Of a DNA stretch of 64,000 bases, positions 969 through 61,951 are shown piece by piece. The notes under the pieces were generated by a model. It saw nothing but the letters and a program-made list of their open reading frames with translations. It ran no database searches and was not told the DNA's origin. Origin of the DNA: Stegostoma tigrinum (lineage: Eukaryota). The stretch covers positions 56,217,553 through 56,281,552 of the forward strand of contig NC_081361.1 of assembly GCF_030684315.1 (NCBI RefSeq), written 5' to 3'. Position numbers and translations under genes: made by a program. Within the stretch, counting starts at the first letter, position 1. Each line of letters begins with the position of its first letter.

Positions 969-1443
969 GTTCCTTCTTCATTCTCTTATTGTTTGCTGTT
1001 TGTAGTTAAGCAGCGAGAAATGATCACACAAGGCAGTAATGACTAAAAAAGGGCACAGTCCCAGTTGACAGCTGGTAGCCTGCATTTTGGAAGGGGCCTT
1101 TTTTTAAAAACACAAAAAATCGAAATGACAAACGTTGAACGCAAACATTTGAATGCAGCCAACTTGTGGCACTACTGTTGAATTCTTAAATTATATTCAC
1201 CCCACCCCGCCACCTCAAAGAGGTGACAGTTCATGTCATCAATCTCATTTATGCAGCGATAAGTAACATTAATTAAAAACTTTATAGATTCGAGTTCATT
1301 TCTAAAACAAGCCTCTGCCACTGTTAAATTAACCTTAACTTTTTCTTCCAGACTTGTAAAGTAACCCAAGAGGTGGGGTGGGAGTTGTAGCACCAAAGAA
1401 CTGAACCCAAACACGACAGGACAGTTAATAGCCCAAGATGGGT

Positions 1444-2846
1444 CCCCCACCTCCTCCTCCGCTACATCGATGACTGTATCGGTGCTGCTTCATGCTCCCA
1501 CAAGAAGCTTGAACAGTTCATCAACTTTTCTAACACTTTTCACCTCAACCTCAAGTTCACCTGGACCATCTCTGATACCTGTCTGTCTCCATCTCTGTTG
1601 ACTGCCTAGAAAGTGACATCTATTTCAGGCCCACCAACTCCCACAGCTACCTGGGCTACACCTCCTTTCAGCCACGTTCCTGCAAGAATGCAATCCCCTA
1701 CTCCCAACTCCTCTGCCACAGCTGCCCCCAAGATGGGGCATTCCACTTCCAAACATCCCAGATGTCCTTGTACTTCAAGGACTGCAACTTCACCCCTTCA
1801 GCGGTCAAAAATACTCTCGACCACATATCTTGCACCTCTGCCCTCACATCCTCTCCTCGCAACAAAAACAAAGACAGAAACCCCTTGTTCTCACCTAACA
1901 CCCCACTAACCTCCATATCCAATATATCATTTGCTGCCACTTCTACCACCAGCAATCCAACCACACAACCAAACATATATTTCCTTCCCCACCCCTATCT
2001 GCCTTCCATAAGGACTATGCTCTCCACGAAACCCTCATCCACTCTACATTCCCCACTAATCCCACCTCCCCCAGCACATTTCCCTGCAACCACAGGAAAT
2101 ACTACACTTACCCCTACACTTCCTCACTCACCTCCATCCAAGGAGCCAAATAAACCCTTCAGATCAGACAGATTCACCTGCACTTCTGTTAATGTGGTCT
2201 ATTGCATCCACTGCTCCCAATGTGGCTTCCTCTACATTGGTGACGCCAAGCAGAGTCTCAGGGACCACTCTGTAGAGCACCTACAGTCTGGTCACAATAA
2301 GTGACAACACCTTCCAGTCACGAGCCATTTCAACTCCCCTCCCACTCCCTGGGCAACACATCCATCCTGGGCCTCCTCCCGTGTCAAAATGACACCACCC
2401 AGAAACTGGAGGAGTAGCACCTCATATTTCAGCTCAGGAGCCTACAACCCAATAGCCTCACTGTGGACTTTACCAGTTTCAAAAACTCCCCAACCACGGC
2501 CTCATCCCATGACCGACCAACCCTCCCTCTCATCCCCACCACCTTAACCTGACACAATCTGTCCATCTTCTCTCCCACCTATCCACCCCTCCAATCCCAC
2601 TGACCAATTCCCAACACTCCCTACCTGCACTCACCTATCACCACCCCACCTACCTTCCCCAGCCCTACCCCTCCTCTCTCGGCTTATTCCTGAGCTCCCT
2701 TGCCCCCCCATCCCCGTTTCTGAAGAAGGGTTCCCCACCCGAAACGTCAGCTTTCCTGCTCCTCTGATGCTGCCTGGCCTGCTGTGTTCCTCCAGCGCCA
2801 CACCGTGTTGTCTCTAACTCCAGCGTCTGCAGTTCTTGCTATCTCT
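1444..2846 (+). mobile_element. 5'-truncated Penelope-like retroelement (RT C-terminus, GIY-YIG endonuclease, 3' terminal repeat)
   Basis: RYIDDCIG RT motif at ~1460-1483; VVYCIHCSQCGFLYIG...HSVEHL GIY-YIG region at ~2190-2290; frameshifted; ends in the terminal repeat shared with the fold-back elements. Confidence 0.9.
2717..2752 (+). ncRNA. Minimal type I hammerhead ribozyme motif in Penelope 3' repeat
   Basis: CTGAAGA-A-GGG-TTCCCCA-CCC-GAAACGTC-AG: both core boxes, stem II and a GUC cleavage triplet. Confidence 0.75.
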
Positions 2847-6111: not shown

Positions 6112-6310
6112 AAAGCAGAAACCGCTGGAGAATCTCAGCAGATCTGGCAGCATCTGTGGAGAGAAAACAGAGTTAATGTATTGCGTCCAGTTGACCCATC
6201 TTCTGGACCTGAAACATTAATTCTGATTTCGCTCCACACATGCTGCCAGAGCAGCTGAGTTTTTCCAACTATTTCAGTTTTTGTTGCTGATTTCCAGCAT
6301 CCACAGTTTT
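6112..6310. mobile_element. Degenerate Penelope-derived fold-back element
   Basis: CTCAGCAGATCTGGCAGCATCTGTGGAGAGAAAACAGAGTTAATGT inverted against ACATTAATTCTGATTTCGCTCCACACATGCTGCCAGAGCAGCTGAG; GAAACATT remnant. Confidence 0.65.
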
Positions 6311-15294: not shown

Positions 15295-15520
15295 GAGATA
15301 ATGGGAACTGCAGATGCTGGAGAATCCAAGGTAACAAAGTGTGAAGCTGGATGAACACAGCAAGCCAAGCAGCATCTCAGGAGCACAAAAGCTGACGTTT
15401 GGGGCCTAGACCCTTCATCAGAGAGCTCTCTGATGAAGGGTCTAGGCCACAAACGTCAGATTTTGTGCTCCTGAGATGCTGCTTGGCCTGCTGTGTTCAT
15501 CCAGTTCACACTTCGTTATC
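15295..15520. mobile_element. Penelope-derived fold-back element with 14-bp TSD
   Basis: Loopless palindrome centred at 15425/15426 (TCATCAGAGAG|CTCTCTGATGA); TSD CTCCT[A/C]CAATGTCA at 15281-15294 and 15520-15533. Confidence 0.9.
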
Positions 15521-18181: not shown

Positions 18182-18429
18182 ATTTATTTTAAATTAACCT
18201 GTACAGACCTATTATGACCTACTTTGCCAGGTGGGACTTGAACCCAAACATTCCATTCCAACATACCACTATGCCACGTAGTCCTTAGCCCAAGTCATAT
18301 GCTGTCCTCAGTTGGCCATACATGTTTTTAAAACAATATGCAATGTTCCTCTCAGCAGGTATGAGTTCAATGGCTCGTAAAATTTTCATGTCCAGACCTT
18401 ATTAGAAACAGACAGCAAGCTTCCCACAG

Positions 18430-19984: not shown

Positions 19985-20020
<36 letters not shown>

Positions 20021-20110
20021 CGGGTGTGGGTGTGTATATGCGTGAGAGAGAGACGGGTGTGTGTATGTGGCTGTGTGTGTGAGAGAGAGAGGTGGCTGTG
20101 TGTGTGAGGG
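18430..20110. repeat. Compound (GT)n/(GA)n micro/minisatellite with recurring GAGAGACGGGTGTGGGTGTG unit; contains two N gaps
   Basis: Seen directly; gaps at 18748-18909 and 19545-19697. Confidence 0.95.
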
Positions 20111-20420
20111 GTAGTTGAGAAACGGGGAACCGAAAATCCGACCGCTCCCTCAGCGCATAACCGAGCCAGCCGTTGCCGGTAAATGAGGCGGGTTGCGCTG
20201 GGGGATATTTGACTTAGATACCCAAAGGATAGCAGTGGGCTGCGGTTTATTTTTGAGACTCTGAGGAACATTCTTACTCTTCCGGGCGCCGCAAAACAGA
20301 ACGAAGAAAGTTCCACTTATTGGAAGCACTCGGTGCGAATGCAAGTGACCAAACTCTGCCGTAAATTGCAAAACGTGTCCTCCCATTGTCACTGCTCCTT
20401 CATTGGCACGGAAGCGTTTC
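20110..20420. promoter_or_regulatory. Small CpG-rich island, candidate promoter/enhancer
   Basis: Local CpG enrichment, GGCGGG box, GAAAGTTCC kB-like site, ATTGG (CCAAT on minus strand) motifs. Confidence 0.35.
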
Positions 20421-22050: not shown

Positions 22051-22370
22051 TATCCTAGCTCATTCCTATTGCCAACTTCACCCACCTGTAAGCATGACCA
22101 GTATCAACCTCCATTATGTTCAAACAGAAACCCAAGGATTTGGGCACAGGCTGTCAGGACATCTATATCTTGTTGGCACATTCAGCTGCCAGTCTTCAAC
22201 ATTTATCCATTACACTAAAAAATGTAAAATAAAATCACATAAAAAGAGCATCTAACAAGCCACTCCTAATGGGTCTATCAATCAATAATTGTTAAAATAT
22301 TGGACACTACGTGAGGAAAATGCACCCGACAATCACCCATTTTTCCAAAACAACACCAGTGTTAAAACAG

Positions 22371-22992
22371 AGATCGTAAGAATTGTAGATGCTGGATTCA
22401 GAGGCAACACAGTGTGGAGCTGGAGGAACACAGCAGGCCAAGCAGCATCAGAGGAGCAGGAAAGTTGACATTTTGGATCAGGACCCTTCTTCAGAAATGG
22501 GGAGGGGGAAGGGAGCTCAGAAATAAGTAGAGAGAGAAAGGATGGAGCTATGGAAGGTGGGTGTGATGGTGATAGGTGAGTGCAGGTAGGCAATGGTGGG
22601 GATTGGTTAGTGTAATGGGAAGAGCTGATAGGTGGGAGAGAAGTTGGACAAGTTGTATCAGGTGAAAGAGGCAGGGATTGAGAGGGAGGCTTGGGCATGG
22701 GATGAGGCTGGAGTTAGGGAAATTTTGAAACTGGTAAAATCCACTTTAGGCCATTGGGCTGTAGGCAAAATATGAGCAGCTGCTCCTCCAGTTTGTGTGT
22801 GGTGACATTGTGGCACTGGGGGAGCCCAGGATGGGCATGCCACCCAGGGAGTGGGAGTGGATGGTTTGCGACCAGAAGGTGTTGTCATTTGTTGCAAACA
22901 GAGCACAGATGTTCTACAAAGTGATCTATGAGCCTCTGCTTGGTCTCACCGATGCTGAGGAAGCCACATCAGGATCAGTGGATTCAGTAGAC
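22371..22992 (-). mobile_element. 5'-truncated Penelope-like element with 17-bp TSD
   Basis: Similar to 2250-2846 on the reverse strand; TSD CAC[C/T]AGTGTTAAAACAG at 22354-22370 and 22993-23009; decayed hammerhead CTGAAGAAGGGTCCTGATCCAAAATGTC. Confidence 0.85.
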
Positions 22993-23469
22993 CACTAGTG
23001 TTAAAACAGTTGAATTTTCTGCTGTGATCTATTAAACTCCACTGCTTCAGAAGTTTCTGGATGACATCTTGTCTTAGTGGCAATTAGTTGTTAATTGTAG
23101 TGCAGGCATAAATGTCCAGAGTTTAGTTGTCTCAAAGATTGAATTCCCTATTCATCAGCTTTTCAGGAAACTGTCAGAAGTGGCATAAAATATGGAGGAC
23201 ATTTTTCAGTTTGTAATTTTATGTAAGGTTGCCAACTTTGATTGGAGATATTCTTGGAGATTTATTCACAAGGCATTTCACCAAGTGACATTTAATCATT
23301 TGACATCAATCTTGTGACATCTGAGCACTTCGGCTGGATCAAATGGCACTTGCCACTGTTATGTGTTTATCTTACTATGGTTATGTCCCCTGTAGCTAAG
23401 CATTTTTGCACGAGCAACTATTGTGCAAAATCTTCCAAGACAAGTTCCAAGGAGAAAGAATGTCATTCA

Positions 23470-26265: not shown

Positions 26266-29110
26266 CTAAAGAACAATAGAGCACAGGAACAGGTCCTTCA
26301 GCCTTCCAAGCCTGTGTCGACACATTTTGCCCTTCCACACTACAACTTCCTGTAAGTCCCTCTATTCCTTTCCAATTCATGTATTTTTCCAGGTACTTCT
26401 TGAATGCTGCTACGGTGTCTGCTTCCACCACCTTGTCTGGCAGCATGTTCCAGGCACCCACCACCCTCTGTGTGAAAAATTTGCCTCTCACATCTCTTTT
26501 AAACTTGCCTCCACCACTCCACCCCCGGACCTTGAACTTGTGCCCCCTCGTAATTGATTCATACACCCTGTGAAAAACCTCAGACTTTCCACCCTACCTA
26601 TGTCATTTACAATCTTTAAACTTCTACCAGGCCACGTCTCAACGTCCCACTTTCCAGTGAAAACAAAACCAGTCTATTCTTCATTTCTTCATTGCTAAAA
26701 TCCCCCATACCAGGCATCATGCTGGTAAACCTTTTCTGTACCCTCTCCAAAGCAGTGTGGTGACCAGAGCTTTACGCAATATTCCAAGTGTGGCCTAACT
26801 AATGTACTACAAAGCTACAGCATTACTTGCCTATCCTTATATTCTGTGCCCATTCCAATGATGGCAAGCACGCCATAACCCTTTTTACTACTTCATCTAC
26901 CTGCTCTGCCACCTTCAGCGATCTGTGGACCAACACACCCAGATCCCTCTGCATATCAGTAATGAGAAGGGCTTATAATTTCCACCTGACCCTGACCTTT
27001 GTCACCTTCTAAAATGTGTCATCTCACATGTGTACAGATTAAGTTCCATCTGTCATTTTTCTGCCATTGTCTCCAGCTGGTCTATATCCTGCCATATCCT
27101 CTGATAATTCTCACTATCTGCTACTCCATCAATCTTTGTATCATCTGCAAACTTACTAATTAGACCAGCTATGTTTTCTTCTAAATCAGTTATGTAGATC
27201 ACAAACAGTGCTGATCCCTGTGGAACACCACTAGTTACAACCCTTCAATCCAAAAAGCATCCTCCTAACACTACACTCTGTCTCCTATGCCTAAGATAGC
27301 CATGATGTGGAGGTAGTGGTATTGGTCTGGTGTGTTTCAAAACCATACAGATGTTGGGACAATGGATAAATGGACACTACGTAACAACTGCCAGACAGTG
27401 ATGTTCCCTCCCAGTGGGGGAACCCTTCAGTGCTCAAGGACATTCGGCCTCAGATCTTCAGGTAAACGTCCTCCAAGGCAGACTTCAGGATACATAACAA
27501 CGCAGAGTCGCCGAGCAGAGGCTGATTGCTGAGTTTGGTACCCATGAGGATGGGTTCAACTGGGATCTTAGGTTCATGTCGCACTTAAGGTGACCCCACC
27601 AAACTGCACCCATGCACACACATCCACACATGCACATCCACACACACACACCTGTGAATCAATGGTGTGAATTTGTATTTGCAGATTTTACTTTGTTCAA
27701 AAAACACATAAAATTAAACAGCCAATCAATATGGCGTTTTATAAATTCCTGCTTTAGAAATAATACCAGACAACTCCAAACCGTAACACAAACAGATTCT
27801 AAAGAAGCTCTCACACCTAACATGCATTGTCTGACCTAAATGTCACCTCTTCTTTACACTGCTAAAACTTTTACTTCTCTCAGGAATTCTGGGATTTACA
27901 TGTACATATTAATCAATTAAAACCTTCTAACTGATTGAAGACTTAACAGCATCTCAGGTTTGTTTAGTACATCCTCATCAATGGTGTGAACCTTTGATCT
28001 TTTACTTGTAAATTCTATGTCTATACTACCTCTCTCACTAGTACCTGAAGAAGGACTGATGCTCTGAAAGCTTGTGTTTTCAAATAAACCTGTTGGACTA
28101 TAACCTGATGTCGTGTGATTTCTGACTTTGTCCTATGACTCAGCCAATTCTGTATACATCTTGCCAGCTCAGTCCGATACAATGAGACTTCAACTTTTGT
28201 ACCAGTCTGCCATGAGGGACCTTGTCAAAGGCTTTACTAAAGTCCATATAGATAACATCAATTGCTTTACCCTCATCAATCATCTTCATCACCTCCACAA
28301 GCATCTTGATCAAGTTAGTGAGACACAGCTTTCCCTGTACAAAACCATGCCATCTATCACTAATAAGTCCATTTGCTTCTAAATGCATACTGATTTTGTT
28401 CCTGGGATTCTTTTTCAATAATTTTCCGACCACTGATGTGAGGCTTACAAGGCCTGTAATTTCCTGAATTATCCCTGCCAACCTTCTTAAACAATGGGAC
28501 AACATTGACTACTTTCCAGTCTTCTGGGACCTCCCCTGTGGCCAAAGAGGATACAAAGATGTAAGTCAATGCTCCAGCAATTTGTTTACTTGCCTCCCTC
28601 AATATTCTGGGAGTGATCCCATCAGGACCCAGGGACTTATCTACCTTAATACTTTGTAATATGCACAACACCTCTCCCTTTTAAAAAGCAACTTGGTTAG
28701 AAATTGTCACTCTTCCCCAAAATTATCTTCCATCAATTCCTTCTCTTTGGTGAATACTGATACAAAGTATTCATTTAGGACCTCATCTGCCTCTTCTGGC
28801 TCTGCACATTGATTCCCTGCTTTGTCCTTGAGTGGACCGACCCTTTCCCTGGTCACCCTCTTGCTTTATATATATGTATAAAAAGCTTTGGGATTCTCCT
28901 TAATTCTGTTTGCCAATAACTTTTCATGACCTCTTTTAGCCCTTCTAATTCCTTGTTTAAGTTCTATCCTACTTTCCTTATATACTTCAAGAGCTTCCAT
29001 CCTCCTAAACTTTGTGTAAGCTTCCTTTTTCTTTTTGACCAGGGTCATAACATCCAAGGTTCACATAACTTGCCATACCTATCCTTCATTGTCCCAGGAG
29101 TGTTCAAATT
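26266..29110 (-). mobile_element. CR1 LINE (~2 kb of ORF2), interrupted by a Penelope element
   Basis: GPDGITPRIL, GNYRP, YMDFSKAFDKVPH and FFTQRVV motifs on the minus strand. Confidence 0.92.
27300..28130 (+). mobile_element. Penelope-like element (second subfamily) nested in CR1
   Basis: GIY-YIG C-terminal remnant (GHSASDLQVNVLQG...AEQRLIAEFGTHEDG); terminal CTGAAGA-AGGACTGATGCTCT-GAAAGCTT at 28045-28073; approximate TSD TCCTATG(C/A)CT(A/C)AG. Confidence 0.8.
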
Positions 29111-32059: not shown

Positions 32060-32860
32060 GCACATGAATATGGGCAATGATCATCTTCAATAAGAGACAA
32101 TCTGACCATTATTTCTTGAAATTTGATGGCATTACCATCACTGAATCCTCCATGATCATCATCCAGGTCAAAGCAGACCACTTGATTGATACTACATCCA
32201 TAAACGTCCACTCCCTCTAACACAAACACTCAGAAGCAGCATAAAAACCGAAAGGACTGTGATTGCTGTAAATTAGGAACAGAAACAGAAGTTGCTGGAA
32301 AAGCTCAGTAGGTGTGGCAGCATCTGTGAAGAAAAAAAAATCAGGTTTAACATTTCGGGTCCGGTGACCCTTCCTTAGAACAGCAGTTCTGATGAAGGGT
32401 CACCGGACTCGAAACATTAACTTTGATTTTTCTCTGCACAGATGCTGCCACACCTGCTGAACTTTTCCAGCAACTTCTGTTTTTGTTGTGACTCAGAAGC
32501 AACAGTCTGTACCATCGACAAGATGAACTACAAAAATTGACCAAAGATCCTTAGATAGCACTTTCCAAACACACAACCACTCCCATTATGAAGGACAAGA
32601 ACAGCTACTTGTGATCGCCGCCTACTTCTAAGTTCTGCTCCAAACCACTCACCATTTCTGATATGGAAATATATCATTGTTCCTTCAGGTCATGAGTTGA
32701 AAATCCTAAAATTCCCACCCTTACAGAATTGTGCATTCACGTACAGCATGTGAACTGCTGCGGTTCAAGAAGGCAGCTCAGTACCAGCTTCTCAACGCTA
32801 ACTAGGGATGGCGATAAATACTGGCCCAGCCAATGATGCCTAACGTGAATAAAATAAAAG
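32060..32860 (+). mobile_element. LINE 3' fragment (tail shared with the local SINE family), interrupted by a fold-back element
   Basis: Ends CTGCGGTTCAAGAAGGCAGCTCA...CTAGGGATGGCGATAAATACTGGCC. Confidence 0.6.
32242..32490. mobile_element. Penelope-derived fold-back element with 14-bp TSD and hammerhead motif
   Basis: Inverted arms; CTGATGA-A-GGGTC-ACCG-GACTC-GAAACATT at 32389-32418; TSD ACTCAGAAGCA[G/A]CA at 32228-32241 and 32491-32504. Confidence 0.88.
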
Positions 32861-34760: not shown

Positions 34761-36865
34761 GATTAAAGTGAAACTCTGCTGTCTGTGCATACTTCAAAGG
34801 ATCTTTTATTAAAGTAACATTACAACTGGGGCATAACAAATGCTCATCAAGTAAGAAAGAATCTACAAATAAATTGACAAATAGGAAGGTTCACTCAGAA
34901 AGGCCTTTCAGCATGATTCATGTTAAACATTAAAAAAAGTCACATTAGGGTCATATCTGCTGAGGTGCTGGCCACAGGGAATTTTGCCTGTGGTTTTATA
35001 CCTGAGCTTGGAGAACCTGATGTCAATAGTGAATGACAAGAGGCGAGAAGTTTCTCACATCGAGCACAACAGCTAATAATAATAATTACAGACCATAGAG
35101 CCATAGAAAGGTTACAACATGGAAAGAACCCATGTCTGTACAGGTTGGATGAACTAAGCATCCATTTCACTCACACTTTCCAGCAACTAGCCTGTAGCCT
35201 TGCAGCTTCTGTTGCAGATCCAGGTTTCTTTTAAACGAATGAAGGTCTTGAGCCTCAGCCACCAAACTCGACAGCAAATTCCAGACACCTGTTACCCTCT
35301 GGGTAAAAAAGATTTTCCATTCCCCCCCTAATTTTTCTACTGATCACTTTAAATCTGTGTCCCTGCTAATTGAACTCTCATAGGTTCATACAAGTTCACA
35401 AAACAGAAAGCGGGCATTCAGTAGATTGTCTCCCATCCAGTTAACAAAGATGTGACTGCACTTATCCCATTTTCCAGCTCTTGTTCCATAGCCCTAGAGG
35501 ATATTGCAGCACAAATGAATACCTAAATACTGCTTAAATGTTACGAGTTTTATTTCATTCAACTACCATTTCAGGCTGTGAATTCCAGACTCTAAGCAAC
35601 CTCTGAGTGAAAACAATTCTCCTCAGCCTGCATCTGAACCTTTCACCATGTACCTTTAATCCATGTCCCTTATTATTGAACTCTTGAGGAATGGAAAGAG
35701 GGCCTTTCTATCAACCCAATCTATACCTCTCATAATTTTATACACTTCCATGAAATCCCCTCTCAACCTTTGCTGCTCCAAGGAAAACAACCCCAGTCTA
35801 TTCAATCATTCCTCATAACTTAATCCGTCCAGCCAATGCAGCATCCTGGTAAATTTTCTCTGTACCCTCTCTAGTGTTGTTACATTTGTCCTATGATCTG
35901 GTGATCAAAACTCATGCAGTTCTCCAGTTATGCACTAACCAAGATTTCAAGCAAATCTAGTGTACCCTCAGTGCTCTTATCTTCTATCTCTTGGCTAATA
36001 AAAGCAAGAGTCGCAGCTGCTTTCTTAACCACCTTATCTACCTGCCCTGCTACCTTCAAGGATCTGTAAATATGGACACCAAGGTCCTGCTGATGTTTGG
36101 TACTTCCCAGGGTCCTCCTATAATTAGCGCAACCCCCTGCCTTGTTAGGAACATTGGAACAGTGGTAGACCATACAGTCTATCAAGCCTACCCCACCATT
36201 CAAAATTATTATAGCTAATGCTTTTACCCAATCCACTCCCTGTAACTCTATGATATCAATAATCATAAGTCTATCAATCTCTACCTTAGAGGCACTCAAA
36301 TACTAAGCAGTCTGTGGTAGAGAACTCCAAAGATTCACAATCACCGAGTAAAATAAATTCCCTTCATCTTGGACTGAGGTGGTATCTCTGTTATCTTTAA
36401 ATTGTACCACAATGTTTTTAGATTTATAAACTGGTATAACATCTTACCTGCATCTACTTTGTCTATTCCTTTAAGTATTTGCTAAGTTTCAATAAGATCA
36501 TCTCATACTGTTTGAAACACTTAAGAATATGGTTTGCCCAATCTCTCTTCATAAGATAGCCCCACCACGCCTAGAACAAGTCTGGTGGAGTGTAATTGTA
36601 CTCCCTCTAAGGCGACGATATATTGTCTGAGATAAGGAGACTAAAACTGCATAACTGCAGTCTCACAAGTTTCTATACAATTAAAGCAATATTTCACTAC
36701 TCCCATAATCAGATCTTCTTGAAATAAAGTTTAAAATTCTATTAATTTTCCTAATAGCTTCATACACCTTCAGTGATATATGGAAGAAGACACTTAGGTC
36801 CCTTTGTATTTTCTGACCTCTTACCACTTAACTGTGGGTAACCCACCAAGCTGGTATATAACTTA

Positions 36866-37079
36866 GAGATAATGGGAACTGCAGATGCTGGAGAATCCAA
36901 GATAACAAAGTGTGAAGCTGGATGAACACAGCAGGCCAAGCAGCATCTCAGGAGCACAAAAGCTGACGTTTCGGGCCGAGACCCATCTGATGAAGGGTCT
37001 AGGCCCGAAACGTCAGCTTTTGTTCTCCTGAGATGCTGCTTGGCCTGCTGTGTTCATCCAGCTTCACACTTTATTATCT
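36866..37079. mobile_element. Penelope-derived fold-back element with perfect 14-bp TSD
   Basis: TSD TGGTATATAACTTA at 36852-36865 and 37080-37093; near-perfect ~85-bp inverted arms. Confidence 0.92.
36984..37018 (+). ncRNA. Minimal type I hammerhead ribozyme motif (intact core)
   Basis: CTGATGA-A-GGGT-CTAG-GCCC-GAAACGTC-AG at 36987-37016. Confidence 0.8.
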
Positions 37080-39448
37080 TGGTATATAACTTACTACACT
37101 TCATACTTTTCCACATTATATTCCATCTGCCACGTTCTTGTTATTCACCAAGCCTATCCAAATCTTTCTGAAGCCACTTTGCATCTTCCTCACAACATAG
37201 GTTGCCACTTAACTTTGCATCATCCACAAATTTGCAAGTATTACATTTGGTGCTCCACCACCAAATCTTTGGTATACATTGTGAATAGCTGGGTCCCAAG
37301 TACATGACCTCACATTTTTCTGTGTCGAATTCCATTTGCACACTGATGAGAGCAGATTGACTGGCTTATACCATACCATACCATTTTTGAATAATGTTAC
37401 AAGGCTCATCTCCGATCCTCTTTATATCTAATGAGGGTTGGAAAATGCTCCTCAAGCATACATTATTTCATTCCTGGCTTCCTTTAACAGTCTGGGATAC
37501 AATTCATCTGACCCTCATGATTTATTCACTTTCAGTTAAGTCACTGTCTCTAATGATTCCCTTCTCATTGTGCTTATTTTATCTAATATTGCACACTCGT
37601 CCTCTATAACTAGATTGTTTCCTTTGTGAAGTCAAAGACAAAGAGCTCATTAAGAACTTGTGCTGTATCATCCACCTGCCCAGCTCCATTTAAGACTTTA
37701 GGACCAAAAGACACAGGAGCAGAAGGAGCAGAAGTAGACCATACAGCCAGTTGTGTTTGCTTTGCCATTCAATGAGATCATGGCTGATCTGATAATCTTC
37801 AGCTCCACTCTCCTGCATTTTCCCGATGACCCAAGGACAATATTTATATACTAGATGATAACTGGGTCATTGAAGTGCACTATTTTCCTCTTTTGAGTTT
37901 TGTATGGAGAAATTTATTACATAGTTCATCCTCCAACTCTTTCCTATGATTTGGGAGTATATCATACACATCCAGCAGTGTGGCTTGTTTCCATTTTGTT
38001 TCTGAGCTCAACCCACATGGTCCATTGTAGGAGTACAACGAAAAGCTTTTACAATGTCTGCCATTTATGGTGACATCTTGGGTATAAGTGCCAAGGTACA
38101 AATCTTGGATACAACAGAAGAATAAAATGTAGTTGCATTACTTAACACAGTTTAAAGAATAAGTTAAAAATCAAACATTGTTCAAGGATTGACACTAGAA
38201 TAAGGTAAAAAATTTCAAACAACATCACATTGTAGCAACTCAATGCAAGGCCTCAGCACGTGGTCTGACCACCTGCACCAGACCCCGATCCAACAGCTGA
38301 CTCGCTCAGCTACAAGCCTCCAGTCCACTCCATGCTGGCACTTAGCTGCTGCAAGGTAAGTTCCAGGACTACATCCCCTGCACCGATCTCCGCCTGAGAC
38401 TTGCTGCCTGCTTCTAGAGGGGCTGCTTTCTTCACATGCTGCTTTGGAGCTTACTGCCTGCGTTGTTCCGGGACTCACAGCCTATGTGCTGCTTCAGGGC
38501 TTGCAACCCCTACGCTGTTCTGGGTCTTGCAAACCACACCCTGTTCCAGGGTTTGTTTCTGCAGGACTTGCGCCTGTGCCTGACGCTGTTCCAGAATTCT
38601 CCTTTGGACCTAAAGGGGTGGGGGCTAAGGGGGGAGAGGGGGAGGTGATGTGGGGGTGGGGGTGTGAAAAAAAGAGCAAAAAGAAAATGAAATAAAAAGC
38701 ACAGGCGGAGCAGAGCAGATCCAGCGGGAGCATCTTACGCTGGTGCAAGGGGAATGCAGAGAGAAAGCCAAATGTAGACGTCTGAACACAGTAGAAGAAG
38801 AAAGGACACCCCCCACACCCCCACCGATATATATCCCCTTCCACTGAACCCCTTCTAACTAACCAAGTTCCCACCTTACACCCACTGCAGCAAAAGCAGC
38901 GTTCAGCGCAGAGAGGGCACCTCTGAGAGAGGCCTTTGTTTATGCTTCCTGAAAATGATTGGCACAAGCTTAAAAATACCAATTTAAACCAGCACCAACA
39001 AACCAGCTACGGCTTTCCTCAGGTGTTGTATACCCATGAGTTAATGCTGTAAAAAAACTTCTCTTCTCCTGACTTAAAGACTAATGTTTGGTTAATTGCT
39101 GTCTTATAGAAAGAAAACCTATAATTTTAAATCAAAATTAGCTGTAAAACTTTCGTACTCAGCAGTTTCCTGTGCAGACAAGTTACTGCTGATGGAGACC
39201 TCAATTTTTACTTAATTTTATTAAATTACATTCTACTAAGCCTGTAATAAAAAATCATAAGTTGTTTCTCCACACAGATCTCAGTTGAAGAATTAAACTC
39301 TTAAAAATGAATTGTTTTAAAATTACATCATTTTAAAAGTTGTTTTATATCAGGATTCTCTAAATGGGTTGTAACCACATTAAGTTCTATTCCTTGAACA
39401 TTTAAAAACAGCATTTTCTTTTTCAGAATGAATGGAACCCTTGTACAA

Positions 39449-46830: not shown

Positions 46831-46945
46831 GTTTCAGCACCACTGTGAGAACACCCCTCTGCAAGAGAAACAGGACAAAATAGATCTGTTAAAGGAACAG
46901 TGTCATCATGTAGCCAGCTCATAGTCTCCCACATTGATATTGCCA

Positions 46946-47168
46946 GTGATAATGGGAACTGCAGATGCTGGAGACTCCAAGATAACAAAGTGTGAAGCTG
47001 GATGAACTCAGCAGGCCAAGCAGCATCTCAGGAGCGCAAAAGCTGACGTTTCGGGCCTAGACTCTTCATCGATGAGGGGATGAAGAGTCCAGGCCCAAAA
47101 CGTTAGCTTTTGTGCTCCTGAGATGCTGCTTGGCCTGCTGTGTTCATCCAGCTCCACACTTTGTTATC
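46946..47168. mobile_element. Penelope-derived fold-back element with 12-bp TSD
   Basis: TSD TTGATATT[G/A]CCA at 46934-46945 and 47169-47180; GATGAAGAGTCTAGGCCCGAAACGTC on the minus strand. Confidence 0.9.
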
Positions 47169-47654
47169 TTGATATTACCATATTGGATTCAGCCAGTACC
47201 AATATCTTTGACTTTTCAAAAGAAATTCATTAGTTAAAACTTCCTCCTCTCCCTTTATCATTTTTTGTTCTGTGTGTGAATGAAATAGTGAAGCCAATCC
47301 CCACATTTTGAACGTTTTGTTGATAAGCCTTATCTTTGGCTTCATCCTAAAAGGATTGTGTTATGAATTTATTTCAAAAATTGTAATCCAAAAAAAATCA
47401 GGATTTGTAGAACATCCTTTGGCCTACTTCATTAGAGAAAAGAGTAAAAAGAGAAAAGAGTACATCAAGCAATACCTCACCATCTTGATCAGAAACAGCA
47501 ATTGCTATTTAAATTCACCCCATTCCCCCTAAACTAAGCCAATATTCTTACACAGTCTTTCCATACACTCAGCTCGCAGGCAGGCACACATATTCTTGCA
47601 AGACATGGATTTGTATGAGATAATAAATCCTATTGTGCAATAGTATATCCCATT

Positions 47655-48160
47655 CATAGAATCACTACAGTGCAGGTAGAAGTTATTTGGCCCATAGAGT
47701 CTGCACTGAGCCTCCAAAGAACATAGTATCAGAGACAGTAGGAACTGCAGGTGCTGAGAATCTGAGATAACAAAGTGTAGAGCTGGATGAACACAGCAAG
47801 CCAAGCAGCATCAGAGGAGCAGGAAGGCTGATGTTTCGGGCCTAGACTGAAGAAGGGTCTTCAGCCTACCTGCTCCTCTGATGCTGCTTGGCCTGCTGTG
47901 TTCATCCAGCTCTACATCTTGTTACCTCCAAAGAACATACCTCCCTATCCCTGTAACCCCACATTTACTACCTAATCTACATACTACAGGACAATTTAGC
48001 ATAACCAATTCACATAATCTGCATATTTTAGACAACAGGAGGAAAGCCACATGGACATGGGCAGAATGCACAAACTTCACACAGAAAGTTGCCTGAGGCT
48101 GGAATTGAACCCAGGTCCCTGGTGTCATGACACAGCAGCAATGATCACTGAGGCACCATG
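47655..48160 (-). mobile_element. HE1-like (V-SINE) elasmobranch SINE, interrupted by a fold-back element
   Basis: Minus head TCAGTGATCATTGCTGCTG...GGGACCTGGGTTCAATTCCAGCC; GCTAAATTGTCCTGTAGT V-domain-like segment; CR1-like tail. Confidence 0.75.
47726..47924. mobile_element. Penelope-derived fold-back element with 15-bp TSD
   Basis: TSD CCTCCAAAGAACATA at 47711-47725 and 47925-47939. Confidence 0.85.
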
Positions 48161-48578
48161 ACATCCGTTACTTGAAGCTGATTTGAATTTAGTGCTGAAA
48201 TGCAGTAAATTTCATTTTAAAGAATGACTTGTGTGTTTTACGTACATATGCTTATGTTTGAGATGTTTAGGAGCCTCAAATATTAGGGACCTAACATTAC
48301 ATATTCTAAAAGCAAGATGATTCACAGGTATAAACTTGAAAGCAGTGTTTAATTATCCATTGGAATAGAGATAGACAAAAAGGGACATCAATAGCAAATC
48401 CATTAAAAGGAAGCTCCAATTTTCTCAGCGTTTATATTTACTATCTAAACTACCTCAGTTGGTTCATGCATCCCAAAGTCAAAATCCACATCTTTATTTT
48501 GAAAACTCTTTGATGCCTCATCCTGTTTTGCATCTGTAATCTCTTTCAAGCTCACACCCAGCCTGTTTCCATTTGTCC

Positions 48579-48884: not shown

Positions 48885-49462
48885 CTGTTTCCATTTGTCC
48901 TCTTGTTTTGGCTTTATATCCATTTCTGTCCTTCCCATTGATGGAGGAATATTTTGTGGGCTCAGGCCTATTTCTAGCTTATTTCTCTGTTCCTCTCCAA
49001 AAGTCTTGGTAAATCCTATTCTTTTGAATTTGCCTGCAGTAATGCTTCTACAATTGCTTGATTCTCCTCTGAAGGGTGATTACCGCAAAATAAGATACTC
49101 ATTTTTGTTGTTCTGGATATCCCTGGTTGTTGATCATGGGCTGTTGATAACACAGAACTTGATAATGAGCAGTGGTACTGCTTTTGTTTAATTAGGTGAA
49201 TATTTGATGCATTATTTAAAAAGCATTTCTGTTAACTGTTCAGTTATTAGTTAAATACTTGTTATTTTATTGAAAGGTTCTGTTTAATTTTAAATAAAGA
49301 AAAATTCACACATTGTAAGCATGTCTACGAAAATGCAATTTTCCTTTATTCTGAAAATGAAGTGAGATAAGAATTTAGATTGAAATGATATAGGTGTTAA
49401 TTAGTCTCCTTTCTAAGGGGAATATCACAACTTGTTTACCATTCGATAGTGAAACATGCCCT

Positions 49463-50151
49463 AAAATGCTCAGGCTGTCCTGATCAGTAGGCACTCGATG
49501 TGTTTAGCATAAATATAGTGAACAAACACAGCTAAAACAATGTTAGTAGTTTCTGGCATAATGTAGTTAAGTAATATTCCACAAATTTATTACATAAGGG
49601 TCAATAATTTCAATTGGGGCAGCACAGTGGCTCAGTGATTAGCACTGCTGCCTCACAGCGCCAGGGACTGTGGTTTGATTCTGCCTTTGAGTGACTGCCT
49701 GTGTGGAGTTTGCATGTTCTCCCTGTGTTTGCTCCAGGTAACAAGGTATAGAACTGGATGAACACAGCAGGCCAAGCAGCATCAGAGGAGCACAAAAGCT
49801 GATGTCTTGGGCCTAGGCCCAAACCATCAGCTTTCCTGCTCCTTGGCCTGCTGTGTTCATCCAGCTCTACACCTTGTTACCTAGAGTAAACACAGGGAGA
49901 ACGTGCAAACTCCATACAGTCACTCAAAGGCAGAATCGAACACAGATACCTGACGCTGTGAGGCAGCAGTGCTAACCACTGAGCCACCGTGCTGCCCCAA
50001 TTGAAATTATTGACCCTTTTGTAATAAATTTGTAGAATATTGCTTAACTACATTATGCCAGAAGCCACTAACATTGTTTTAGTTTTGTTTGTTCACTGTA
50101 TTTACGCTAAACACATTGAGTGCCTTCTGATCAGGACAGCCTGAGCATTTT
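49463..50151. repeat. ~690-bp imperfect palindrome (host DNA + HE1 SINE head + Penelope arm, inverted)
   Basis: Centre GGGCCT|AGGCCC at 49814/49815; AAAATGCTCAGGCTGTCCTGATCAG at 49463 mirrors CTGATCAGGACAGCCTGAGCATTTT ending at 50151. Confidence 0.95.
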
Positions 50152-50849
50152 CGGCCTAGGCCCGAAACGTCAGCTTTCCTGATCCTCTGATGCTGCTTGG
50201 CCTGCTGTGTTCATCCAGCTCTACATTGAGGTTATAAGTGGATGGGTCTTGGCGGCATGCTGCAAGGATCATTGTGGGCTTGTTGGGCAGAAGGACCTGT
50301 ATTCACACTATGGGGATTCTATGTCTAATCTCACATTCTTACTGTATAAAAGCAGAATAAGTGTGTATTTTGGAACCTACCTGATTTGTTTTAGTGCAAG
50401 TGTGATCAATTTGTTATAGTCAATAAGTATCTTAATCTTAAAATTTATATAAATTTTCACACTAATGATAGTAAAAAGATAAATTTGATGAATATTTAAA
50501 TACTCTATTTAAAATGTTGATTTGGATATAACTAACCAGAGGTTAAGTCAACATTTTAAAAATCACTCCTTATAACACAAATTAATTTCTAATCCATTAA
50601 CTAATTTGAACTCAGCATTATCCATTGCAAATTTTCACCACGTGCTGTATTTAAATGTAAATGTTTTGGACGGTGACAACCCTGGTATTAGGATTTTCTT
50701 TCGGGGCAGTACGCAAATATTAAAAACTCCATCGTCTTAATTAGGGTATTTTCGGTCTCATTTACAGCAAGACGATACATAAAAGCTTTGCCATGTCGGT
50801 GTCCTTTCAAAAGTAACAACTGGCAATAACTATTCAGCTGAACACATGA

Positions 50850-51470
50850 CATGGTTGTCCCTTGGGCTGTATTCGGTCGATCAGGTAATACAGGTTGTAA
50901 GGGAGGTGCTGCTTGACTGCAACTTTACTCAACCTCCCTTCTGTACCCCACCCCCACTGCAGGTGTGTTCGCAGCTTTGTGACTGTCAGATTGCAAACCC
51001 GCCCTATGGCGGCTGTCAATCAGAGCAGCCTGTGGGGCTGGGCTTCCGGGAAAGCCCCACCCAATACTGACGGACCTCTACCCCCACCCACGGACACCCA
51101 CCGCTCTCGCCCACCTCCATTGTGACATCACTCTTCCGCAAGCTCAGACGCTGAGATCACCGCGTTTTCCAAATTTGGCAATAGAACGCCCACGTTCCCG
51201 GGCGAGGCGGCTAACGTCAGCACGCCCCCGACACGCACGACCCGCGAGGTTACAAAGACGTGAATTACGAGCGCGCAAAGACCTTACAAGGGAATAACTC
51301 CCGGGTAGTCTAACGTGCTTTCCTGGGTTTTTTTAAACTTAGACTTATCTTCTTTTAATTTTTGCAGCAAAAAGAAACAAATGAGGCGTATTAACTCCGG
51401 CTGTTCCTCTCCCTTCTCCACTTGTTGCTTGTACAGTAACAGGTCTGCGTCGGCAGCAACTTTTCAAAAA
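50850..51470. promoter_or_regulatory. CpG island ~2 kb downstream of c-jun with immediate-early motif cluster
   Basis: STAT TTCCGGGAA 51044-51052, NF-kB GGGAAAGCCCC 51048-51058, CCAAT 51061, TGACATCA 51123-51130, CArG CCAAATTTGG 51169-51178. Confidence 0.6.
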
Positions 51471-53359
51471 TCTCACTAAGGGGAGGTCTCATTTTAGAGC
51501 CAAGTTTTCCTGCCCGTTGCAGATACCACATTGGCTAATTCTTTGAAGCATAAAATTAATCTGAAATTTACTACAGGAGGGTTGGAAGTACTTTCTACCT
51601 TTAGAGGGCTTAAGCGAGTGTTTGATTTTTGTGATTGTTACACAGCTTCAGTAGCAGTTTAACTTGTTCGATGTTTATTTCAAAGAAGTGGAGGGACCAT
51701 GCGACTGTTTGGTGCTAAGAACTCTCAGCTGTTGTACTTCAAACTGTATTTAAATTGTTTATAAACTTACATTTGAGTGTCACTTCATCAGAACTTTAGT
51801 GTCCAAGAATTGTTTGAATAAACAGTTAAATGCAATTGTACCTGATTTCAAAAATCCGAGCAAAACCGGCAAATCCCGTTGGACAGGATACACAAGCTTT
51901 TAAATGTATAAAAGTTACTGCTTCAGCAGTCAAGAATCAGTGGCTAATGTTATTTACTTTGTGAACTCGAAATTTTGGTGCATGTTTTATGCAGTTAACA
52001 AGTTGTGTTTGCCTTTTATTCTAAATAAAATGGAATAATGCACCTTTAAGACTGCAATTGCGGTAACGAGGCTATATAAACGTGAGTTGTTGTGGTATAC
52101 TTTAACGTAGTTCAACGATTTTGGAGTCAATTTGTATCTTGTACAGTAAAATGTTACAAATTGAATGTCAATTACTGTTTAGAAAGTTGAAACAATACCT
52201 AATTCAATTTTATGGTGCATGCAATGACTAATGAATGTTATTTCAAAAGTTTCTTCAATTGAAATTTTGTATTTCAATTTGTTCCTGGCTTTTCTACTTT
52301 TTATTTACTTGTCGTGCAAGACTGACGACCATTCGAACTCGTGGCTGAGTAAATCGATATCCACAATCAACTGAAAATGCAGTGCATTTTACAAAAAAAA
52401 GACCCCTGTCAGTAATTCACCGCGTTTTAAAATAAGTCACCTTAAGTTACATAATTTGTACCATAGTTATTTAAGGACACGTATCCACTGTTACCCCCAA
52501 TGAAGCGTATAATTCCCAGCAGAGTACTTCACAAGACTTCCCAGTTTTCACTAAGGATTCTAATTGTAAAGTAAAGCACAATTTATGGTAAAACTATTTA
52601 GAGCCAAAGTTTATGATTTTTAATAACCAGCCTTCCTTTCTGAATTGCTTCTCTTAGATTTAGTGATATGCAGTCTTAACTATTTAATTTTCTGTTAGGA
52701 AGGATTTTAACACTTCATAAGAAACATATCGAACAAACGGATCTCTATAGAGATTATGGATCTCTGGGATTGTAAATCTGAAACAGCTAGTTCATTTAAA
52801 TTACAAACATTAAGACAAAAATTAGTTTTTCAAACTTCCCATTTGCCTCCTTAAATCCATATGCTAGACTTTAATTTGTTCCAAATATTTAACATGAAGA
52901 TTTTATTCAGTCCATACATAATAATGTATGTAGGGTTATTTTGGATTTCTTATGTGACGTATTATGAAGAATTTAAAACTTTATAAATAACATTAATAGG
53001 ACATTATAAATTAAAAATAGTTTGCTGCTCTTGAGCAAAGACATCGGCAATAAGACTTTAGCACCAAGTCATAGTGTACATTTAGACCCTTTGAAAAACA
53101 AAAGGTGAAACTGAAACGCCCAATATTATTTTCGAATAATGTTGTGAACTCTATAAGAAAATGTTTTCATTCTGAATATTCCGCCTAGCAAGTTAGAGTG
53201 AACACGCGAATTTCGCCTGTTTCAAGTTTGTTAGAAAGAAACTTGACCACAAAGGACAGTTCTGTACATCCTTGATGCTAGATATACTTTCACTCCTCAG
53301 TTAAGAATTGCTGCAATATCACTGAACATTATATGCCAAGAAAATAGAATACAAAATAT

Positions 53360-53990: not shown

Positions 53991-54947
53991 TCAAAACGTT
54001 TGCAGCTGCTGCGTTAGCATGAGTTGGCAGCCGCTGTTTACGTGATTCATAACTTTCTGCTTCAGCTGGGCAACCTGTTCTCGCAGCAGGTTTGCTGTGG
54101 ACGCTAGTTCAGAGTTCTGCGCCTTTAAGGTTTTCACTTTGTCTTCCAGCCTGGCAATTCTCTCCAGTTTCCTTTTACGGCACTTTGAGGCGGCGATGCG
54201 GTTTCTCATTCGCTTCCTCTCGGCCTTGATTCGTTCCTGAGATTCCATGTCAATAGGAGACAACGGCGGGGTCTCCCCGGGCATCTCGGGCACCGTCTGA
54301 GGTTCTTCCTTCAATGCCTGAAGTCTGGGATGCTGCACAGGCATTTGGTGGTTCATCGGATGATGCTGGGGTGCTGCATAGTTCATATTATTGCCGTTGT
54401 AGTTAGGCTGCGCGGTGATCGAGTTAGGGTTAAAATTGTTGAGATTAGCGTAGACCGGAGGCTCTTGGTGCAAATTTGAATTGTAAACAGTACTTGCACT
54501 GGGCAGAGAGGCAGAAACCGCGATCGCCGTATTTGCAGACGGAGTTGAACATGTCACGTTGGGCAGGATATTCTGTTTATGAAGTTCTTCAAGAGCTTTG
54601 ACAAAGCCTTCAGCAAAACCCTCCTGTTCGTCCGTGACATTTCTGGGGCATAGGAACTGGGTCGGTGTTGGGGTGGTGGTGATCAGTCCATTGCTGGACT
54701 GAATTATAAGACGTTCAAGTTCAGGTGATGCGAGTTTGAGAAGTCCCACGTCCGGAGACGTTAATATACCTTCACTGTTCTTGTTCCTCAGATGGGGCTT
54801 CAAGTTGCTCGCTGGATCAGACAGGTTCAAAGTCATATTTTGTTTCAACATTTTCGCACTGTATCCATAACCACTATTTTCAGGCTGTGCAAAAGCTGCG
54901 TTCAGTGCATCGTCGTGGTAGAATGGCTGTTCCATCTTCGTAGACAT
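53991..54947 (-). CDS. jun: Transcription factor c-Jun (AP-1), 318 aa, intronless
   Basis: [10 protein letters not shown] start; delta domain; [21 protein letters not shown] (JNK sites); TTTPTP; [12 protein letters not shown]; b[28 protein letters not shown]; ends LTQQLQTF. Confidence 0.98.
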
Positions 54948-58709: not shown

Positions 58710-59570
58710 TACTGTTGAGTACAAAATTCAAGGCTGAAACTTTAGTGCAATGCAGAAGGAGTGCTGCATTGTTGGAGATGCCATCCTTTAGGTGAGATAT
58801 TTGCATGAGGTTCAAATGTCTGCTGGAATATTGTAAAGAACATAAGTTTATAGGAAAAGGAGTAAGCCATTTGCCCCCTCAAGCCTGCCAGCCGTCTAAT
58901 AAGACCTGGTGTGAGCTCCGTATATCCCTCAATGCCCTGATATTTTAAAACATATTTGTACCTCTCTTTTTAGTGACCTAGTTTTCATAATTGCCTGGAG
59001 TAAAGACTTCCAATATTTTCTACCCTCTGAGAATAAATTCTTCTGTATCTTGGTTTTAAATGAATGACCCTTTATTCTGTGACAAGTAATAACAAGAAGT
59101 AGGATTAGGCCATTCGGTCAAAGCTCCCAGGTCACTAGTTCAAACAATAGCAGTGAAGCACTTCTGGCATCCTGGCCAATATTTATCTCTCTAACAGCAA
59201 AAAGCATTGTTATTATTCACATTGCTGTTTGTGGGAGTTTATTGTGCTCAAGTTGTCTTTCCTAACATTTCTAACATTATTAAAGCAGCTAAACTCCAAA
59301 AGTAAAGATAACAAAGTGTGGAGCTGGATGAACACAGCAGGCCAAGCAGCATCTCAGGAGCACAAAAGCTGACGTTTCGGGCCGAGACCTTTCATCTGGT
59401 GAAGGGTCTCGGCCCGAAATGTCAGCTTTTGTGCTCCTGAGTTGCTGTTTGGCCTGCTGTGTTCATCCAGATCCACACTTTGTTATCTTGGATTCTCCAG
59501 CATCTGCAGTTCCCATTATCACTAAACTCCAAAAGTACTTCGGTAGATTCATAAGTCAGCGCTTTGCCAC
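58710..59570 (+). mobile_element. DeuSINE (SacSINE1-like) with nested CR1 fragment and fold-back element
   Basis: GGAGTGCTGCATTGTTGGAGATGCC... and TCCTGGCCAATATTTATC...CACATTGCTGTTTGTGGGAG segments; CR1 tail at ~58840-59080. Confidence 0.65.
59305..59521. mobile_element. Penelope-derived fold-back element with perfect 16-bp TSD
   Basis: TSD CTAAACTCCAAAAGTA at 59289-59304 and 59522-59537; long arm on the right. Confidence 0.92.
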
Positions 59571-59589: not shown

Positions 59590-60240
59590 CCAAGCAGACA
59601 TCCCTTTTCTACAGTTTGCTTGCACTTCATTCGATTTAGTTTACTCTATCTATTGCTCACAATGTGATTGCCCCTACATTGAAAACACAAAATGTGTGAC
59701 CCTGTTGCAGAATACCTCTGCTATTTCTGTAAAAATTACCCCAAAATTCTGGTTGCCTGCCACTTAAATACTATATTCCCATGGCAATATTTCTGTCTAA
59801 GGACTGCTACCTCCAGCAAAGTTCAAAACATTTTCAAGGAACAGCACCTCATCGTATGCCTTGGTACCTGCAGTCCTCAGGATTTAGTAATTGAGTTTTA
59901 CAAATTCAGAGCATGAACACCTTCCTCCAAATCTGTTCTCCCCCACCCCTCCATGCCATTTCTCTTTCAGTTTCTCCCAGCACAGCCAATGCATTTTCAA
60001 CACTTTGGATTTACCATTAGCACCCTTTCAGCATTTATCTGTCTCTCAGTTTATTATCTACAATCCCTCACTTGCTTTTCCTTTTTATCATCCCCATCCC
60101 CTGGCACTGTCTGCATTAATGTATTTCATTCCTATCTGCACCACATCTCCTTCTCTTTCTCCACCTCTCTCTGCAACCCCCCCCCCCCCCCCCAACCCAT
60201 AATCAGCATAAACACTGCCTTTTCCTGGCTACTTTCTGTT
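59590..60240 (+). mobile_element. Decayed Penelope-like element (GIY-YIG remnant)
   Basis: FACTSFDLVYSIYCSQCDCPYIE...; EQHLIVCLGTCSP. Confidence 0.75.
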
Positions 60241-61013: not shown

Positions 61014-61951
61014 TTGATTTCATCAAGAGTTTTTAGGAGCAAACAAACTTCACGGTTGTGCATTAGCGTTTTAGTTTATAAGGTCAGTGTGATTTTATTT
61101 GTTCTTTTGATTAGAGGAAACACTGATAGCTTAGAAAAAACTTTTTCATTTTACTTTGCCAACTTTACAGCATCCTCGGCAGAAGATGGAAGTGTAAAGC
61201 AGTTGCTCTGAGAAAGGGAGATGGTTTAGAACCGGTAGAGTTAGATTTCTCATAAAAAGTTTAATTTGAAAGGTCCAGAGCAGAAGTGTTTGGTTGCAAC
61301 TTAAGGAGTAAGGGCCTCGGATTCTCAAAACAAGCAATTGAAGACACATTTAAATCAAATAGATGTGAAAAAGAAGGGAATTATCTTTGGTATCGGTACT
61401 GTAAAGAAATTAGATACGATAAAAAAACTGCAGATGCTGGAATCCAAAATAGACAAACAGGAGAATATAAGTAGACAGCAGGCCAGGCAGCATCTGGAGG
61501 AAAAGAGAAGTCAACATTTCAGGTGTCACCCATCTTCAGATCCTCCTCTCTCCCTTTTTTGTCTGCAACTCCCCCTACCCCCACATCCAGCCCTGAAGAA
61601 GGGTAGTACCTGAAATGTTGACTTCTCCTTTCCTCCAGGTGCTGCCTGGCTTGCTGTGTTCTTCCACCCTCCTGTTTGTCTACTGTAAAGAAATGCTTCT
61701 GAGATTAATGGAATTGTGTTTTACTGGGTTTCTCTAAATCTTTAAATTTGTGCCCTGGGTTAATAGATTGGGTTATTCTATTTTGGTATTTGCATAATAA
61801 ACTAATTTAATTGTTAAAACTGAATGTGCAGCATTGCGTGTTTCTGTTTCACTGAAAGATCACCGCTTCAGAACCAAAAGAAAAATCTATTAAGCCAGTT
61901 TTCAGTCTGGGATCTGCATTTAATGTAATAACATTAGCTGGGATCATAACA
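61014..61951 (+). mobile_element. Probable solo LTR (5' end in or before the gap)
   Basis: AATAAA at ~61796 and 3' end CTGGGATCATAACA, resembling LTR termini. Confidence 0.45.
61411..61680. mobile_element. Penelope-derived fold-back element with 14-bp TSD
   Basis: TSD TACTGTAAAGAAAT at 61397-61410 and 61681-61694; CTGAAGA-AGGGTAGTACCT-GAAATGTT at 61593-61619; ~50-nt spacer. Confidence 0.85.

Follow-up and report, generated by a model that had tools for sequence, protein, structure and literature searches.

The locus described here is found in a 64-kb stretch of DNA, hereafter referred to as the window, and comprises a 695-bp palindrome, extending from 49460 to 50154, near an intronless Jun-family open reading frame. 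When the window sequence was searched with blastn, the palindrome aligned with its own inverse at 87.8% over 712 columns with an E value reported as 0.0, and a repeat search of the window recovered its arms as two segments, one of 238 nt (91%) and one of 90 nt (90%). A palindrome of ~690 bp had been predicted originally, and both searches bear this out. Read from left to right, the locus consists of host flank, the head of a SINE, a first repeat arm (A), its inverse (B), the inverted SINE head and flank, a third arm (C), and the tail of the SINE. This order of parts and their coordinates, likewise predicted, are confirmed at the level of the assembly, apart from minor corrections. The features of the locus are listed below.

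49460..49616, no strand: unique host flank, original left copy, with an 8-nt centre-like site at its left end; its sole other match in the window is its own inverted copy
49617..49735, plus strand: SINE head, tRNA-type, with decayed A and B boxes (from alignment to the neighbouring SINE and box motifs)
49736..49814, minus strand: arm A, the end of a Penelope-like pLTR, truncated 5' and stopping at the tail-less 3' site
49807..49822, no strand: fold-back centre, a 16-bp perfect palindrome around CTAG (hammerhead stem II loop)
49815..49882, plus strand: arm B, inverse of arm A, with an 11-nt deletion after 49843
49883..49998, minus strand: SINE head, inverted copy, retaining ancestral CpGs that are gone from the left copy
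49999..50154, minus strand: unique flank, inverted copy (92.4% over 157 nt)
50146..50162, no strand: return junction, where the host end meets the re-copied centre (mirror point between 50157 and 50158)
50158..50225, plus strand: arm C, the third pLTR arm, lacking the last 11 nt before the usual 3' end as well as a tail and a target-site duplication
50226..50330, plus strand: 3' tail of the interrupted SINE
53991..54947, minus strand: Jun-family open reading frame, intronless, its stop 3.8 kb from the palindrome

Layout of the duplicated host DNA

The host DNA copied backwards at the palindrome amounts to 276 bp and is composed of the unique flank and the SINE head. The two flank copies (49460-49616 and 49999-50154) differ at 12 of 156 positions, and the two copies of the SINE head (49617-49735 and 49883-49998) at 9 of 114 with seven gap columns. 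Arm A (49736-49814) is distinguished from arm B (49815-49882) by 6 mismatches in 68 positions in addition to the 11-nt deletion in arm B. The palindrome is the only self-match in the 64-kb window that takes in unique DNA beside Penelope-like repeats. Local alignment of flank against flank yields a score of 222 at the palindrome versus 13-29 at the nine other palindromic insertions of the window, and an inverted flank is thus observed at one of ten.

The interrupted element combines a tRNA-derived head containing A and B boxes, which were located with a sequence pattern, and a LINE-like tail; presumably it is HE1 or V-SINE. Its head aligns to a neighbouring SINE copy with a score of 89.5 (shuffle maximum, 50). 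The tail (50222-50330) aligns to the 3' half of the same neighbor with a score of 54.5, a value reached by none of 1937 random pieces of the window, and it resembles all four of the other 3' ends in the window. On the neighbouring copy, which is itself diverged, the head stops at position 142 and the tail begins at position 208, such that roughly 65 nt or more of the SINE middle is missing, as had been predicted.

That the 695-bp unit is a mobile element present in many copies, with no relation to the DNA around it, is highly improbable. The SINE whose head falls within the unit resumes beyond it as the tail, in the same order and on the same strand, in keeping with the local origin of the duplicated DNA that was originally proposed. 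In addition, the unique part (49460-49616) has no copy within the 64 kb other than the inverted one, and no target-site duplication flanks the unit for any of three boundary choices (best score 6, within the null). Likewise, a MITE or other terminal-inverted-repeat element was rejected on the lack of both a flanking duplication and dispersed copies in the window.

The repeat family and its ordinary insertions

The family of arms A to C has 15 further close members among the arms of the window; all arm counts exclude two distant ones. Two feature entries concern this family.

1442..2846, plus strand: broken RT-linker-GIY-YIG remnant, then a pLTR of the family of arms A to C, which identifies the family
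15294-15521, 36865-37080, 46945-47170, 47730-47927, 59306-59523: head-to-head mini-insertions of the family, with 12-16 bp duplications

The remnant reading frame at 1442-2483 aligns, in order, to proteins carrying RVT_1 and GIY-YIG domains, with E values down to 2e-28, and these proteins also contain the linker Zn-finger motif. With Pfam alone the endonuclease remnant was left unidentified (E=0.055). Because the RT and GIY-YIG remnant precedes a pLTR of the same family, arms A to C are assigned by sequence to an endonuclease-containing Penelope-like element, and the Penelope identity given in the original prediction is upheld. According to the motif criterion of PMC8557442, seen in part, the family probably belongs to the Neptune clade; the motif is present in all ten relatives examined and decayed in the window remnant. 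A second RT-GIY-YIG remnant with a pLTR of this family is located at 22369-22995 on the minus strand, and weaker endonuclease fragments are found at about 27408-27572 and at 59612-59910.

A search pattern for the core identified a minimal hammerhead core in eight family or related copies, which fits the description of the min-HHR in the portion of PMC4209133 available. Rfam returned no match at the gathering score, and at a loose threshold only generic hairpins and no hammerhead. A 25-nt motif from the arms matched no loci in metagenome, genome, and viral contigs.

All 15 of the other arms end at one of two fixed 3' sites, with an optional tail of 30-40 nt, and arms A and B end at the shorter site. 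Each of the five other head-to-head copies displays a 12-16 bp target-site duplication together with one tailed and one tail-less arm, both of the same subfamily. The duplications score 10-16, against a null with a 99th percentile of 7 and a maximum of 10 (300 draws). The centres of these five copies are all different, and each contains a spacer. The inverted pLTR plus tail is a known Penelope-like architecture (PMC3846280, in part). The rule of one tail per insertion agrees with a scheme in which both ends of the target are primed and reverse transcription begins at two sites. Two such start sites, and extension on both strands, are described in vitro in the accessible text of PMC11167929, and the pair of 3' ends seen in the family is consistent with them.

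Several further insertions were noted. A second SINE (47640-48170, minus strand) is likewise split by a head-to-head insertion, which has a clean duplication of 15 bp and a centre that is more scrambled; this locus serves as a local control. Older palindromic insertions of other families are located at 392-552, 6107-6307, 32256-32489, and 61426-61682, all without inverted flanks; those at 32.3 and 61.5 kb contain hammerhead-like cores.

Junctions, age, and origin of the palindrome

At the centre of the palindrome, the 3' half of stem II is reflected across its loop, the self-complementary CTAG. Family copies read GGGTCTAGGCCC at stem II, and the centre is therefore not the native stem. The original prediction had equated the centre with the stem II palindrome, whereas only the 3' half of the stem is represented. 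Unlike the five other head-to-head centres, it has no spacer. The CTGANGA core is kept in none of arms A, B, and C, and an active ribozyme at the centre is thereby ruled out.

At the point where the duplication ends, the host strand has the sequence TTTAGGGC, a 7/8 match to TTTCGGGC of the centre. This host site (49458-49465) is the first 7/8 match in the 1786 nt to the left of arm A, and the only other one in that interval is contributed by another arm of the family. Such matches occur window-wide at 0.25 per kb per strand, and the probability of one falling within 5 nt by chance is about 0.1%, a figure that serves as a guide only given that the 8-mer was picked after the junction was seen. 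The return junction repeats the mirrored centre, together with the last 8-9 nt of arm A, ahead of arm C, and from this it follows that arm C was joined through a DNA template. The fold-back or template switching proposed originally is supported by the position of the return junction on a 7/8 match to the centre.

Arm C is the only one of the 18 arms to fall short of both fixed 3' sites, its tail and last 11 nt being gone. No tail was found at any of the palindrome arms, compared with one tailed arm at five of the five other head-to-head copies. Lacking a target-site duplication, and having an inverted repeat that exceeds the element, the locus is not a canonical head-to-head Penelope insertion. 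It displays instead the features by which template switches are recognized, namely an inverted segment that copies adjacent DNA and switch points that are self-complementary or microhomologous. The junctions point to serial microhomology template switching, which may well have occurred during the insertion itself; that it took place soon afterward can be entertained only tentatively.

The palindrome arms differ at 27 of 338 aligned columns with few gaps, and 20 of the 27 differences are transitions. The right copy keeps four CpGs that the left has lost, and the left keeps one that the right has lost. The old age originally suggested for the structure is supported by these differences and by the loss of CpGs on both sides. 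The flank copies differ at 21 of 270 positions (7.8%, interval 4.9-11.6%), as compared with 20 of 362 for the other arm pairs pooled (p=0.26) and 8 of 68 for arms A and C (p=0.33). Given the lack of significant contrast among these values, the duplication is about as old as the insertions of the family. Mismatches are not significantly enriched toward the centre (4/29 versus 23/309, p=0.27), and no homogenization of the arms along the palindrome was seen.

These differences also bear on whether the palindrome might be an assembly or read artefact, either a fold-back chimera or a mis-join. N gaps do occur elsewhere in the assembly, and the best public runs hold 0.80-0.83 of the sampled words, where 0.817 would be expected if the inverted block were absent. 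These best word shares come from one study (four rows), possibly the source, and a sequence difference of 0.6-0.7% between samples gives the same word share as a missing block. A second organism holds 0.25-0.26 of the sampled words in three studies, a value that carries no position information. Runs with shares of 0.14 or less were left out of account, and the runs listed include none of RNA, which counts neither for nor against. An artefact is nevertheless very improbable. In addition to the preponderance of transitions and the scarcity of gaps, each side keeps CpGs that the other lost, and arm B has the family-majority or own-subfamily base at every one of the five positions where arm A stands alone. 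A faulty copy cannot restore ancestral bases, and a fold-back read chimera is for this reason unlikely. Furthermore, the 7.8% divergence is far greater than the 0.6-0.7% implied for samples of the same label, and the bases shared at either junction number no more than 16.

A comparison of the three arms yields signals that are more difficult to reconcile. Arms A and B share two same-direction CpG losses near the centre, both of which are kept in arm C, and the probability of this by independent decay is about 0.003 by a rough count. The shared losses imply either later arm-to-arm correction or the copying of arm B from an already aged arm A. At the return junction, on the other hand, one of these two CpGs survives in the copy of the arm A end. 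This speaks for an early event, although a loss of 1 nt must then be assumed. Finally, arm A contains two adjacent bases of the other subfamily (9 of the 15 arms) where arms B and C agree, a mosaic type represented in none of the 15 other arms. No single-template model explains these bases without conversion or a second RNA. Every model of the three-arm signals requires one unlikely extra step.

It is possible, although we put it forward with some reserve, that the palindrome arose in two steps. A normal head-to-head insertion of arm A and a tailed arm C would have created a palindrome lacking a spacer and would have been followed before long by a U-turn at the centre during replication or break repair, by backward copying of arm A and 276 bp of flank, and by a return to the centre through microhomology, with the right-hand deletion coming along or later. 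The sequence does read exactly as flank-A, the inverse of flank-A, and centre-C, and such an origin accommodates both the CpG losses common to arms A and B but not C and the spacer-less centre. It demands, however, extra independent events for the end of arm C, the tail, the target-site duplication, and the SINE middle, and none of the 15 other arms shows such changes. The CpG retained at the junction means that any delay was short. In addition, the inverted run of 340 nt is longer than any event reported in great apes (at most 128 nt) in the accessible part of PMC7954356, which is a study of short-range events only.

Twin priming with mixed templates is an improbable alternative and amounts to a variant of the preferred scheme given below with a different template strand. 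Both target ends would have been primed on different RNAs and the cDNAs annealed at CTAG, and the growing strand, templated at first by the second cDNA, would have moved over to arm A at the 11-nt deletion. In its favor, arm B matches arm C before the deletion at two subfamily-diagnostic bases and arm A after it, and the pairing of one tailed with one tail-less arm at all five other copies is what two RT start sites would give (PMC11167929, seen in part). Both arms of those same five copies are of one subfamily, however, the mosaic type of arm A has no parallel among the other 15 arms, and the shared CpG losses stay unexplained.

The explanation that we prefer, and that seems to us about evenly balanced between right and wrong, is that the palindrome represents the neutral scar of one aberrant Penelope-like insertion into the SINE that proceeded by serial template switches. 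The enzymes, and the order of the steps, are proposed provisionally. The left target end would have primed reverse transcription at the tail-less 3' site, a habit observed for the family, to produce arm A. The new strand presumably halted in hammerhead loop II, where the centre is positioned, and turned at the self-complementary CTAG. DNA-templated synthesis would then have continued back through the arm and, unusually, beyond the priming point and 276 bp into host DNA, the product of which is the inverted flank and SINE head. At the first 7/8 host match, the strand may have paired once more, either with the tip of the hairpin or with a second cDNA, and from there copied the centre and the arm again, yielding the observed junction and arm C. 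A final joining of the strand to the right target end, resected as far as the SINE tail, would account in one chain for the short arm C, the absent tail and duplication, and the missing SINE middle. The palindrome would since have decayed with no sign of function.

Two rare anomalies coincide at the palindrome, the inverted flank (1/10) and the short-ending arm (1/18), and the one-event model is favored on the grounds that it explains both at once. Against it stand the CpG losses shared by arms A and B, which need arm-to-arm correction or an already aged arm A. The original prediction had ascribed both the duplication and the deletion to the insertion. Both are present and may stem from the one insertion event; replication slippage at the fresh palindrome after a normal insertion would yield the same product and fits nearly as well.

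We consider it unlikely that snap-back overrun and return to the hammerhead loop are regular in Penelope-like integration and hence a systematic source of host inverted duplications, with the length set by the nearest host loop match. If this were so, a genome with the density of the window, roughly one palindromic insertion every 6 kb, would be expected to contain many such long hairpins, and their junctions would reveal whether the inverted pLTR arises by self-priming or twin priming.

The predicted hairpin and comparison with known systems

The Jun-family frame at 53991-54947 we take to be c-jun; its matches to solved structures do not separate c-Jun from JunD. A role for the hairpin as a cruciform or as dsRNA in c-jun read-through transcripts was suggested originally. 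Such a function in Jun regulation today, which would be compatible with any origin, is very unlikely. The predicted fold is indeed strong on both strands (-555/-563 kcal/mol; 15 mononucleotide shuffles gave -186 +/- 7), and a CpG-rich block that contains a CRE/AP-1-like site is situated about 800 bp away. If the left SINE head were transcribed by Pol III, the RNA would be mostly hairpin, the first T4 being at 50017. The boxes of this head are decayed, however, the divergence is at the level of unselected insertions, and the interval from the Jun stop to the palindrome contains seven AATAAA signals. The mismatches compatible with G-U pairing show no strand bias (9 versus 11, p=0.82). The longest perfect run in the hairpin is 30 bp, and the central perfect core extends for 8 bp per side, a length that disfavors cruciform extrusion. 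That extrusion starts at the centre is given general support only in the available portion of PMC7999016. The suggested role is not supported, the perfect core being short and the wobble-compatible mismatches balanced between the strands.

Other observations were made in this region and elsewhere in the window. The CpG-rich block (50950-51500; observed/expected 0.97, 51000 bin) contains a TGACATCA site at 51123, is positioned about 2.7 kb downstream of the Jun stop, and is a possible enhancer or promoter. The almost wholly hairpin transcript of the left SINE head would extend over 49617-50017 on the plus strand; one from the better-kept right head would stop at 49797. Host exons were sought between 9.6 and 53.9 kb, outside of the palindrome locus and 18.3-20.4 kb, among the 150 longest of 207 minus-strand and the 150 longest of 214 plus-strand stop-free frames. 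The minus strand yielded one RT fragment and two weak matches below the cut-off and the plus strand none, in a search from which short exons would escape, so that the palindrome could still lie within an intron. The RT fragment (28143-28508, minus strand; RVT_1, E=3e-7) belongs to another retroelement. A single open frame of 748 amino acids with a CARD domain and many ankyrin repeats is located at 7235-9481 on the minus strand, and a low-complexity CA-rich array with two N gaps and spurious long open reading frames is found at 18386-20271.

With respect to known systems, the palindrome resembles the insertions of endonuclease-containing Penelope-like elements, with which it shares head-to-head pLTR arms, a palindromic junction, two fixed 3' ends, and a parent element encoding RT and GIY-YIG (PMC3846280, PMC8557442, and PMC11167929, each consulted in part). 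It differs from the canonical insertions in that the inverted copy reaches 276 bp into host DNA, a third arm is present, and the tail and duplication are missing. What the accessible portions of these three papers describe is capture of host DNA between pLTRs and not an inverted copy of the flank. Self-priming has been proposed for Penelope (PMC3846280, in part), and the manner in which Penelope-like elements build inverted ends is called undefined in the sections available of PMC8557442 and PMC3846280. The open-access texts consulted, seen in part and with supplements excluded, contain no report of this architecture for Penelope elements, and the available part of a preprint on animal retrozymes holds nothing on sharks, palindromes, or target sites.

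Parallels are also found in other classes of retroelement. At R2 snap-back 5' junctions, the cDNA end primes synthesis on itself or on nearby target DNA; these are engineered insertions of another element class in human cells, and the run-through into the flank with a return to the hairpin tip is a feature of the palindrome that the portion of PMC11371274 available does not describe for R2. Target-site deletions, inversions, inverted duplications, and hairpins formed by self-annealing of the cDNA are recorded for LINE-1 in the corresponding part of PMC11702581. Those cases are somatic and experimental, whereas the palindrome is old, small, and copy-neutral outside of 0.8 kb. Short-range template switches under the four-point model (PMC7954356) and ODIRA-type events (PMC10766186), as far as these two sources were available, similarly produce an inverted copy by way of short inverted repeats or microhomology, with deletion possible. 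The 340 nt of the palindrome falls between the short events of the former and the large copy-number variants of the latter, and its trigger, unlike theirs, would be a retroelement ribozyme loop.

On this analysis, the palindrome would be a single neutral one-off, a variant of known retrotransposon snap-back chemistry with close precedents in L1 and R2. New are the end of the duplication on a 7/8 host match to the centre and the junction that re-copies the centre. The locus appears to preserve DNA-templated copying that started and restarted at a ribozyme loop and crossed into host DNA, and it poses the genome-wide question of whether such duplications end at sites that match the loop sequence. 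Although probably harmless, it records how a Penelope-like element can duplicate DNA at its landing site.
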